7,927 nucleotides of DNA, from the IMG/VR virus record IMGVR_UViG_2663762849_000002. One strand, 5' to 3'. The notes beneath the pieces were generated by a model, which saw only the letters and a program-made list of their open reading frames with translations, had not been told where the DNA came from and did no database searches. A program made the translations under genes and the position numbers. Shown here in pieces: positions 2,841 through 3,151 of this stretch. Within the stretch, counting starts at the first letter, position 1, and every line of letters starts with the position of its first letter. The stretch is from a virus (lineage: Monodnaviria > Loebvirae > Hofneiviricota > Faserviricetes > Tubulavirales).

Positions 2841-2926
2841 GTGCAATTGTGCAAACTTGCAAAAATAATACACAAAAAAACCAGATGCACAAGTGCAATT
2901 GTGCACAAATGCAATTTTGCTATGTT
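2841..2926. promoter_or_regulatory. divergent promoter/operator region between Rep and the regulator gene
   Basis: gtgcaattgtgca occurs twice (2841-2853, 2893-2905). Seven TGCA cores in two clusters with 8-bp phasing (2842/2850/2858 and 2886/2894/2902/2910). Candidate Rep promoter on minus strand: -35 TTGTGC (plus 2892..2887), 16-nt spacer, -10 TATTAT (plus 2870..2865). Candidate regulator promoter on plus strand: -35 TTGTGC 2899-2904, 16-nt spacer, -10 TATGTT 2921-2926. Confidence 0.5.
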
Positions 2927-2962
2927 GTATTAAACTAAGCCAAAAGAACAGGAGAACAAAAA

Positions 2963-3151
2963 ATGAGCAGGAAAAGTATTGGTATAAGCAACGAGAGATA
3001 TCTGAGAATAGAAAGAGCAGCCGTAGATATCACAGCCAAAACAGGAAAAGTCACAAAATGGTCGGAGATCGTGAATTATCTGATAGATGAATATTTAAAC
3101 GATGCAAAACAAGATATGATTTCGAAAAATGAAATTACACAAAAAAAATAG
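2963..3151 (+). CDS. small DNA-binding regulator, 62 aa, probably ribbon-helix-helix
   Basis: SD AGGAGA 2950-2955, 7 nt before ATG 2963. KSIGISNERYLRIERAAVDITAKTGKVTKWSEIVNYLIDEY fits a beta-strand/helix/helix RHH pattern. Divergent from Rep across the repeat array, as rstR is from rstA in CTXphi. Confidence 0.6.
   Translation: MSRKSIGISNERYLRIERAAVDITAKTGKVTKWSEIVNYLIDEYLNDAKQDMISKNEITQKK

Follow-up and report, generated by a model that had tools for sequence, protein, structure and literature searches.

A short RstR-family regulator and phased TGCA arrays as a probable immunity and replication-control switch in an Escherichia coli inovirus prophage

The divergent control region and its TGCA arrays

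The stretch of DNA analyzed here (IMG/VR record IMGVR_UViG_2663762849_000002; 7,927 nucleotides [nt], hereafter the window) is a filamentous phage (inovirus) prophage of Escherichia coli, judging from its gene content and its matches in bacterial chromosomes. Pfam searches of its open reading frames (ORFs) recovered an inovirus gene set comprising a replication initiator (Rep, of the GPA type), Zot, a pIII-like protein, and a G5P-like protein. The sole sizeable plus-strand gene adjoining Rep encodes a protein of 62 amino acids (aa), labelled "hypothetical protein" in near-identical E. coli prophages (RefSeq), and the interval between these two divergent genes carries clustered copies of the tetramer TGCA. 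The small protein, its probable operators, and the Rep gene are examined here as a candidate switch controlling phage immunity and replication. The features of the region are as follows.

815 to 2815, minus strand: Rep gene, GPA type, 666 aa, with a GTG start at 2815 (Pfam Phage_GPA, E = 1.7e-48)
2813 to 3237, no strand: exchangeable immunity cassette, beginning at the Rep start codon and ending shortly after the regulator gene (from split matches and comparison with the E. coli prophage L003; boundaries set by eye, accurate to about 10 bp)
2820 to 2825, minus strand: probable Rep Shine-Dalgarno (SD) sequence GGGGGG, 4 nt before the GTG, read from the sequence
2842 to 2861, no strand: array A, TGCA boxes at 2842, 2850, and 2858 with 4-bp spacers ATTG and AACT, between the candidate Rep -10 and the Rep SD
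2865 to 2870, minus strand: candidate Rep -10 TATTAT, in the A/T-rich interval separating arrays A and B, read from the sequence, identical in the E. coli allele L002, below the scan threshold
2886 to 2929, no strand: array B, TGCA boxes at 2886, 2894, 2902, and 2910 and degenerate boxes at 2918 and 2926, with spacers CAAG, ATTG, CAAA, and ATTT
2887 to 2892, minus strand: candidate Rep -35 TTGTGC, read from the sequence, with a 16-nt spacer, overlapping box 1 of array B
2909 to 2936, plus strand: candidate regulator promoter, -35 ATGCAA (2909 to 2914), 16-nt spacer, -10 TAAACT (2931 to 2936)
2950 to 2954, plus strand: SD sequence AGGAG of the regulator gene, read from the sequence
2963 to 3151, plus strand: regulator gene, 62 aa, short RstR family (PHROG 2503), probable ParG-like ribbon-helix-helix (RHH) protein

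The GTG start of Rep agrees with the RefSeq annotation of a 99.6% identical prophage ("replication endonuclease," same ends), and a longer mechanical Rep ORF starting at 2914 was set aside on that support.

The seven TGCA cores and their division into two 8-bp-phased clusters, as reported in the initial annotation, were confirmed. Spacing is exactly 8 bp within each cluster and 28 bp from the box at 2858 to the box at 2886, so that an A/T-rich gap of 24 bp separates array A from array B; the latter is continued in register by its two degenerate boxes (TGCT at 2918 and TGTA at 2926). A repeat finder detected the arrays as a 22-nt direct-repeat family and as box-centered palindromes. TGCA is not enriched across the window (43 sites versus 48.6 ± 6.1 in shuffles), and the clustering is therefore a local feature. 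In dinucleotide-preserving shuffles (2,000 of the window and 5,000 of the 147-bp intergenic region), a four-site run at exact 8-bp spacing, or five 8-bp pairs, was found in none of the window shuffles and none of the intergenic shuffles, and seven TGCA within 72 bp were found in none of the former and 0.06% of the latter. A chance origin of the arrays was rejected because the shuffles failed to reproduce the 8-bp runs.

The control region was compared with those of 22 further loci, for which 150 bp upstream of each homologue of the small protein was scanned; these loci are phylogenetically nonindependent and represent about seven core types. The repeats are conserved in related elements. Relative to L002, an E. 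coli allele about 85% identical across the region, none of the 28 core positions in the interval 2838 to 2940 was changed, compared to 12 of the 75 other positions (Fisher test, P = 0.017). Across six TGCA-type loci, from E. coli, Photorhabdus, Providencia, and viral contigs, the core columns were 86% identical to the window, versus 64% elsewhere (P = 5e-4). Boxes 1 and 2 of array A were invariant and box 3 was nearly so in these six loci, and the degenerate box at 2926 is a perfect TGCA in L002, L004, L005, and L011. By these comparisons, the box cores are under purifying selection.

Outside the TGCA group, the layout recurs with other sequences. Each of about seven lineages bears its own overrepresented 5-mer (4 to 10 copies versus 0.1 to 0.8 expected), arranged in two clusters, mostly at 8- or 16-bp spacing. 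Base-identity autocorrelation over the 23 loci gave a mean z of 2.2 at lag 8 and 1.4 at lag 16, versus -0.5 to 0.4 at the other tested lags. The cores were distributed as follows.

TGCA (gTGCAa/c): window group
CTCAC/TCACA: Haemophilus, Actinobacillus, and lemur viruses
GTTAAC: another E. coli allele (L003) and two viral contigs
GTATAC: one viral contig
GCATGC: pre-CTXphi, VAI1, and others
ATTCA: one viral contig
TTATAA: three viral contigs

Among these loci, the box core tracks the regulator allele and not Rep. L003 encodes a Rep that is 98.4% identical to that of the window, with a regulator that is only 53% identical and boxes of the GTTAAC type. L004 and L013 encode regulators that are 77 to 82% identical to that of the window, with TGCA boxes and with Reps lacking BLAST-detectable similarity to that of the window; the Rep of L013 belongs to Rep_trans (Pfam). 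The cores are replaced wherever the small protein diverges and thus behave as cognate operators, and the TGCA arrays are most likely the operators of the 62-aa regulator, as judged from this covariation. In total, the regulator and its arrays adjoin Reps of three Pfam families (GPA, Phage_CRI/G2P, and Rep_trans), and they therefore constitute a portable control cassette. Other E. coli prophages with near-identical Rep (98%) and downstream DNA bear a different regulator and different boxes in the cassette interval of the window.

Several observations concern the contents and edges of such cassettes. The alternative cassette of L003, an E. coli AST205 prophage (positions 6231 to 6942), contains three small ORFs in a row: an unannotated 60-aa family member (6231 to 6413), a 70-aa family member (6485 to 6697), and a 62-aa ORF of PHROG 5219 (unknown function), whose N terminus (MPTKHIND) is similar to that specified by the published primer for rstR-calc (MATKHIKD). 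Two families of short RstR-type genes may thus be carried together. In both the window and L003, the right-hand edge of every small-gene module bears a copy of a short imperfect palindrome, GATTGCTAGAAG(A)GCAA / GATTGCTAAAAAGCAAT (at 3170 to 3186 and 3227 to 3243 in the window and at about 6440 to 6460 and about 6960 to 6980 in L003); it may mark a cassette recombination joint or be a small terminator. In Actinobacillus seminis (L008, positions 2749 to 3849), the long ORF divergent from the family gene is not Rep but a host gene resembling exonuclease I (Pfam Exonuc_X-T_C, E = 1e-96), and CTCAC/TCACA arrays are present; this may be the remnant of a prophage or a cassette captured beside a host gene.

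The initial annotation had also placed the arrays over both -35 elements and between the Rep -10 and its SD. This placement is plausible, and the candidate Rep and regulator promoters matched the consensus at 8 and 7 of 12 positions, respectively. At the column of the regulator -10 (TAAACT), L004 has TATAAT, and L005 and L011 have TACAAT. The hexamers are weak, however, and a sigma-70 scan at its threshold called no promoter in 2816 to 2962, which counts against the promoter assignments. If the candidate hexamers are correct, Rep transcription would start at about 2858, array A would occupy about +1 to +20, upstream of the Rep SD, and box 4 of array B and the two degenerate boxes would lie on the candidate regulator -35 and its spacer.

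The short RstR family and the probable fold of the regulator

The 62-aa gene differs from its L002 counterpart at 17 nt, with 16 codons changed synonymously and 1 nonsynonymously, a pattern indicating that the gene is real and under purifying selection. A word-indexed protein search returned only close Enterobacterales relatives. A full hidden Markov model search with the alignment of these relatives recovered 72 cluster representatives (50% clustering), almost all of 55 to 100 aa. The regulator matched phrog_2503 (E = 1.1e-28), which is labelled "unknown function" in PHROGs. Compared to deposited phages by tblastn, it was 43 to 45% identical to annotated rstR products of CTXphi and pre-CTXphi (GQ466608, "environmental RstR"; GQ466611; KR063268; and GU942563; E = 4e-8 to 5e-8), and matches were also found to the "RstR-like putative transcriptional regulator" of Vibrio phage VAI1 and to hypothetical proteins of lemur-saliva inoviruses (57%). 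The top structural match among viral models (BFVD) was RstR of CTXphi (probability of 0.99). Based on these similarities, the 62-aa protein belongs to a short RstR family.

The genomic layout is also that of the CTXphi switch. The family gene lies divergent from the replication gene in all of the matched phage records, and a long divergent ORF was found within 420 bp of the family gene in 19 of 24 loci, being a Rep (GPA, G2P, or Rep_trans) in all those tested but one. The resemblance to rstR/rstA proposed in the initial annotation was therefore borne out, in that a divergent regulator, a control region, and Rep are arranged as rstR, ig-2, and rstA are. The accompanying proposal, that the sequences are unrelated to those of CTXphi and the switch arose independently, was not, given the identity to annotated RstR and the top BFVD match. 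On this evidence, the switch belongs to the same family in another host and is not convergent. The protein is unrelated only to the canonical RstR of about 112 aa (El Tor and classical), which is of the helix-turn-helix (HTH) type; neither an HTH_3-type domain nor any other Pfam match was found in the 62-aa protein at E ≤ 10.

The activity of the family can be approached through published reporter assays. In a 2024 study, eight rstR alleles were cloned, and each repressed a lux reporter of its own ig-2 (rstA promoter) (PMC11509585, Table 2). Repression was allele specific, and the short alleles tested were calc (180 bp), rstR-5 (204 bp), and rstR-6 (192 bp); rstR-6 gave a reporter signal of 1.94e4, versus 2.18e5 with the empty vector (PMC11509585). 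The rstR-6 primers encode MKKKYTSLRV... and ...NTQKTDLKR, and the forward primer matched the start of the family gene in Vibrio cyclitrophicus phages at about 29 of 31 nt (93.5% over 31 nt; BLAST), while an exact search for the primer in viral contigs gave no match. At least one experimentally tested repressor, rstR-6, very probably belongs to the short RstR family, as judged from these sequence ends. A family ORF was also observed in If1 (L028, NC_001954), a classical nonlysogenic phage. This unannotated ORF, MATPKRTTMAIVAERKLKLERLAIDASHTAGRAITWTDIVNHLIDNYAKD..., lies at 1987 to 2176, within the "major intergenic region" of the record, and adjoins the apparent C-terminal end of an IS200-type transposase; it is 41 to 51% identical to family members and has no obvious array upstream.

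The initial annotation had described the regulator as RHH-like. Structure prediction with AlphaFold2 (AF2) gave a model of the 62-aa protein (predicted local distance difference test, 82) with an extended N terminus (residues 1 to 9), a helix (10 to 27), a loop (28 to 32), and a second helix (33 to 61). This predicted topology is that of an RHH monomer but equally that of any helical hairpin. In the family alignment (60 sequences), low-entropy hydrophobic residues occupy positions 6 and 8, polar residues occupy positions 5, 7, and 9, which rank with the most variable core positions, and G28 is conserved; the alternation at positions 5 to 9 is what would be expected of a ribbon with a base-reading outward face. 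The family was compared by hhalign with ten approximate RHH sequences and six non-RHH controls. The best match was ParG (probability of 73.7, P = 2.9e-5, over ParG residues 35 to 74), for which the approximate sequence was 95% correct when checked against retrieved ParG homologues; CopG gave P = 0.016, MetJ and omega gave P = 0.12 to 0.23, and the controls gave P ≥ 0.3. A profile-profile comparison with the ParG family, built from real homologues, gave a probability of 57% (E = 1e-4) over 44 columns spanning the whole RHH domain and placed residues 3 to 9 of the window protein on the ParG strand KRVNVNF. Metagenomic family members P0086, P0096, and P0104 (122 to 142 aa) were found to contain two tandem copies of the 60-aa domain per chain. 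The RHH protein TraY likewise has two tandem domains in one chain, and such two-domain proteins would be expected of an obligate dimer.

Several results weigh against the RHH assignment. Pfam gave no match for the 62-aa protein or its paralogues. Pfam ParG was touched by only 7 of the 60 family members (best E = 0.019), below curated thresholds. Fold searches with the monomeric AF2 model were nondiscriminating, and sequence searches of the PDB with two profiles were marginal (TTHA0139, E = 0.044; ParG, E = 0.27). The AF2 model of the two-domain protein P0086 contained four helices with unpacked halves and no beta sheet (predicted template modelling score, 0.44). Overall, the RHH-like residue pattern and the profile match to ParG (57 to 74%) held up, and an RHH fold of the regulator is considered probable, not established.

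Proposed switch, alternatives, and known systems

Taken together, the region is probably an immunity and replication-control switch, in which a short-RstR regulator with a ParG-like RHH fold would repress Rep through the phased TGCA arrays. In the proposed mechanism, the regulator would act as a ParG-like RHH dimer whose two-stranded beta ribbon (residues of about 3 to 9) reads one TGCA tetramer in the major groove. Dimers would load side by side, 8 bp apart (a 4-bp box plus a 4-bp A/T-rich spacer), and coat both arrays cooperatively. Array B, with four to six boxes, would cover the -35 regions of the two divergent promoters (Rep and regulator), which stand back to back, and array A, with three boxes, would lie just downstream of the Rep transcription start. 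Occupancy would occlude RNA polymerase at the Rep promoter and shut off Rep, which would keep a phage of the same allele, whether resident or incoming, from replicating, and higher occupancy would limit synthesis of the regulator itself (autorepression). Specificity would reside in the box core and the N-terminal strand of the protein, and exchange of the regulator and arrays between phages as a unit would yield heteroimmune alleles. The direction of regulation, i.e., repression, is suggested by analogy with the published reporter assays on CTXphi rstR alleles, and the stoichiometry of one dimer per box and the promoter positions are likewise inferred.

Some of the comparative data do not favor this proposal. 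The 8-bp signal is weak in L006, L007, L017, L026, and L030, where cores are inverted or irregularly spaced, and no long divergent ORF lies within 420 bp of the family gene in 5 of the 24 loci. Membership of rstR-6 in the family rests on its primer-encoded termini and a close homologue, not on the full sequence.

Other roles for the arrays were weighed against this proposal. Filamentous-phage origins are intergenic, with initiator-bound repeats (as for Ff gpII), and because the arrays adjoin the Rep gene, they could be iterons or origin sequences bound by Rep and not by the small protein. This is very unlikely, since a nearly identical Rep stands beside GTTAAC boxes in L003, TGCA boxes stand beside dissimilar Reps in L004 and L013 (the latter Rep_trans), and GPA, G2P, and Rep_trans initiators are all accompanied by the two-array layout. 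A role for the boxes as single-stranded DNA (ssDNA) or RNA hairpins, e.g., a minus-strand origin, a packaging signal, or a minus-strand terminator, was suggested by their palindromic form, by the ssDNA hairpins that inoviruses use, and by a terminator scan that flagged a minus-strand stem at 2906 to 2885 followed by a T run. The predicted ssDNA fold of 2830 to 2940 is not unusually stable, however (z = +0.71; 155 of 200 shuffles folded at least as well); nonpalindromic direct cores (ATTCA and CTCAC) keep the array layout without hairpin potential, and a very stable hairpin sits elsewhere, at 3395 to 3500. A hairpin function is accordingly judged highly improbable.

The small protein might instead bind the arrays to activate Rep or its own gene, or to assist nicking or recombination by bending DNA, as the RHH protein TraY does. 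RHH proteins include accessory factors, and an identical protein is named "Relaxosome protein TraY" in one source, but that name was assigned automatically, and Pfam gave no TraY match. Boxes over the -35 and start region would fit occlusion better than activation, RstR-annotated relatives hold the same position, and the eight tested rstR alleles, short ones included, repress cognate rstA promoters (PMC11509585). An activating or accessory role is thus unlikely, if less so than the other alternatives. Finally, the arrays could be sites for a host factor, such as a nucleoid protein or LexA, with the small protein acting elsewhere, given that ig-2 of CTXphi is LexA bound and YpfPhi is reportedly RovA regulated (PMC4266046). 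No LexA-type box (CTG-N10-CAG) was found in 2816 to 2962, and any SOS input would therefore not be of the CTXphi type. TGCA and GTTAAC alleles both occur in E. coli, moreover, with cores tracking the phage regulator allele, and host-factor binding has very little probability.

Homology, gene position, and cassette behavior place the region, in kind, with the RstR/ig-2/rstA switches and, in its proposed working, closest by analogy to ParG on tetramer arrays and more loosely to MetJ and omega. The short RstR alleles of CTXphi and pre-CTXphi (GQ466608, KR063268, and rstR-6) and the RstR-like protein of VAI1 are homologous, about 60 to 65 aa long, and divergent from the initiator across about 100 to 150 bp. 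As in the window, their ig-2 regions bear clustered short cores (GCATGC), and the systems exist as mutually replaceable alleles; unlike these Vibrio systems, the window has E. coli as its host, a GPA-type Rep of 666 aa in place of a Rep_trans-type RstA, and the core TGCA. Canonical RstR is of the HTH Cro/C1 type and has long operator sites, which are not known to form 8-bp arrays. Its genes are 336 to 339 bp, whereas the window protein is much shorter and has no HTH match. The layout, with a divergent repressor and allele-specific immunity, is the same (PMC11509585; Kimsey and Waldor). In YpfPhi of Yersinia pestis and CUS-1 of E. coli K1, which integrate at dif and occur in tandem, YPO2273 is described as RstR homologous and lies in the same position (PMC4266046). 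These are enterobacterial inoviruses like that of the window, which has a CTX-like folded attP.

ParG of plasmid TP228 binds 4-bp ACTC boxes with 4-bp AT-rich spacers, in direct or inverted orientation, with one dimer per box and cooperatively, and eight boxes repress parFG (PMC3130281). Its OF operator and parH centromere thus have the same 8-bp geometry as the window arrays, and ParG is the best-scoring RHH relative of the regulator, although the similarity is marginal (57 to 74%). ParG serves in plasmid partition and contacts ParF through a flexible tail of 30 residues, whereas the phage protein is tail-less, and the boxes in the window form two clusters flanking the promoter and not one continuous array. 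MetJ (8-bp met boxes) and the omega repressor of pSM19035 (7-bp heptads, direct or inverted) are likewise RHH dimers that polymerize on tandem units; MetJ requires a corepressor, and the omega period is 7 bp. Neither showed a detectable sequence relationship to the regulator in the hhalign comparison. An omega-like RHH ORF has been noted in filamentous phage PMBT54 (PMC10534721).

The surrounding prophage and implications

The remaining genes of the inovirus set lie on the minus strand (ORF list and Pfam).

784 to 359, minus strand: G5P-like ORF
6141 to 4930, minus strand: Zot/pI homologue
7803 to 6517, minus strand: pIII-like protein

Three complete E. coli chromosomes contain DNA 99.3 to 99.6% identical to the window, in the form of a prophage that adjoins hipA and is present in tandem copies in at least one strain. 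No nucleotide-level match to the window was found among deposited phage genomes, and the nearest Rep proteins were those of Vibrio phages fs2 and VFJ (29% identity). No Rfam families or tRNAs were found in the window. An ORF of 56 aa, strongly hydrophobic, lies at 3228 to 3398, after the regulator gene on the same strand and outside the exchangeable cassette. L003 has an identical 51-aa version, starting at an internal ATG, and Pfam and PHROG searches with the ORF gave no match; it may encode a small membrane protein cotranscribed with the regulator.

Two inverted dif-like sequences were observed, AGTGCGCACAATGACGTTATGTATAAA at 3404 to 3430 and the reverse complement of CAGTGCGCATAATGTGA at about 3470 to 3491. 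As minus-strand ssDNA, this pair (3395 to 3500) is predicted to form a single long, forked hairpin (-40.2 kcal/mol, z = -11.5, 0 of 200 shuffles). This layout is that of the CTXphi attP, which in its folded form serves for integration by XerCD, and it is consistent with the prophage position adjoining hipA in E. coli.

Parts of the window appear damaged. At 99.3% identity, bases 1 to 146 match part of mdtD, an E. coli chromosomal gene (major facilitator superfamily transporter) found in 5,423 of 5,426 genomes, and phage DNA takes over from about 147, midway through the region of small coat genes instead of at attP. This junction points to a prophage copy that was truncated or rearranged and either entered mdtD or became joined to it, or else to a chimeric contig. 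Two tandem duplications, of 145 bp (3.0 copies, 99% identical, not a multiple of 3) at 3687 to 4128 and of 339 bp (2.2 copies, 96%) at 4182 to 4916 fall within the GspD/pIV secretin gene, which is intact in related prophages, and split its frame in the window into repeated ORFs; this broken region reflects either a degenerate prophage or an assembly artifact. The window thus looks like a damaged or chimeric prophage copy. The damage does not touch the control region, which is 99.6% identical to those of intact-looking prophages.

Switches with divergent repressor and Rep genes are already established, as is the coating of tetramer arrays by RHH proteins, and no new principle is claimed. In the searchable literature, with subscription RstR literature lying outside the search, no fold or operator architecture was found for the short RstR alleles. 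What appears to be new is the E. coli allele, the link of phrog_2503 and the short RstR proteins to a ParG-like RHH fold, and the lineage-specific cores in two, mostly 8-bp arrays. A more general reading, to which we assign an even chance, is that PHROG 2503, including the short RstR of CTXphi, comprises widespread tail-less ParG-like RHH repressors that act on lineage-specific cores of 4 to 6 bp in 8-bp arrays, with specificity arising from three outward residues of the N-terminal strand and with a cassette portable between unrelated initiators.

These results provide a probable function for PHROG 2503 by linking it to the RstR repressors of the cholera-toxin phage. The operator grammar proposed here, a 4-bp core and a 4-bp spacer in two arrays flanking a replication promoter, would explain discrimination between self and nonself by the heteroimmune alleles of filamentous phages. 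If the general reading is true, it would offer a mechanistic account of heteroimmunity in CTX-like phages, the cholera-toxin phage included, and the family would constitute a natural set of small, mutually orthogonal repressor/operator pairs, whose diverse regulators and boxes could serve as compact orthogonal repressors.

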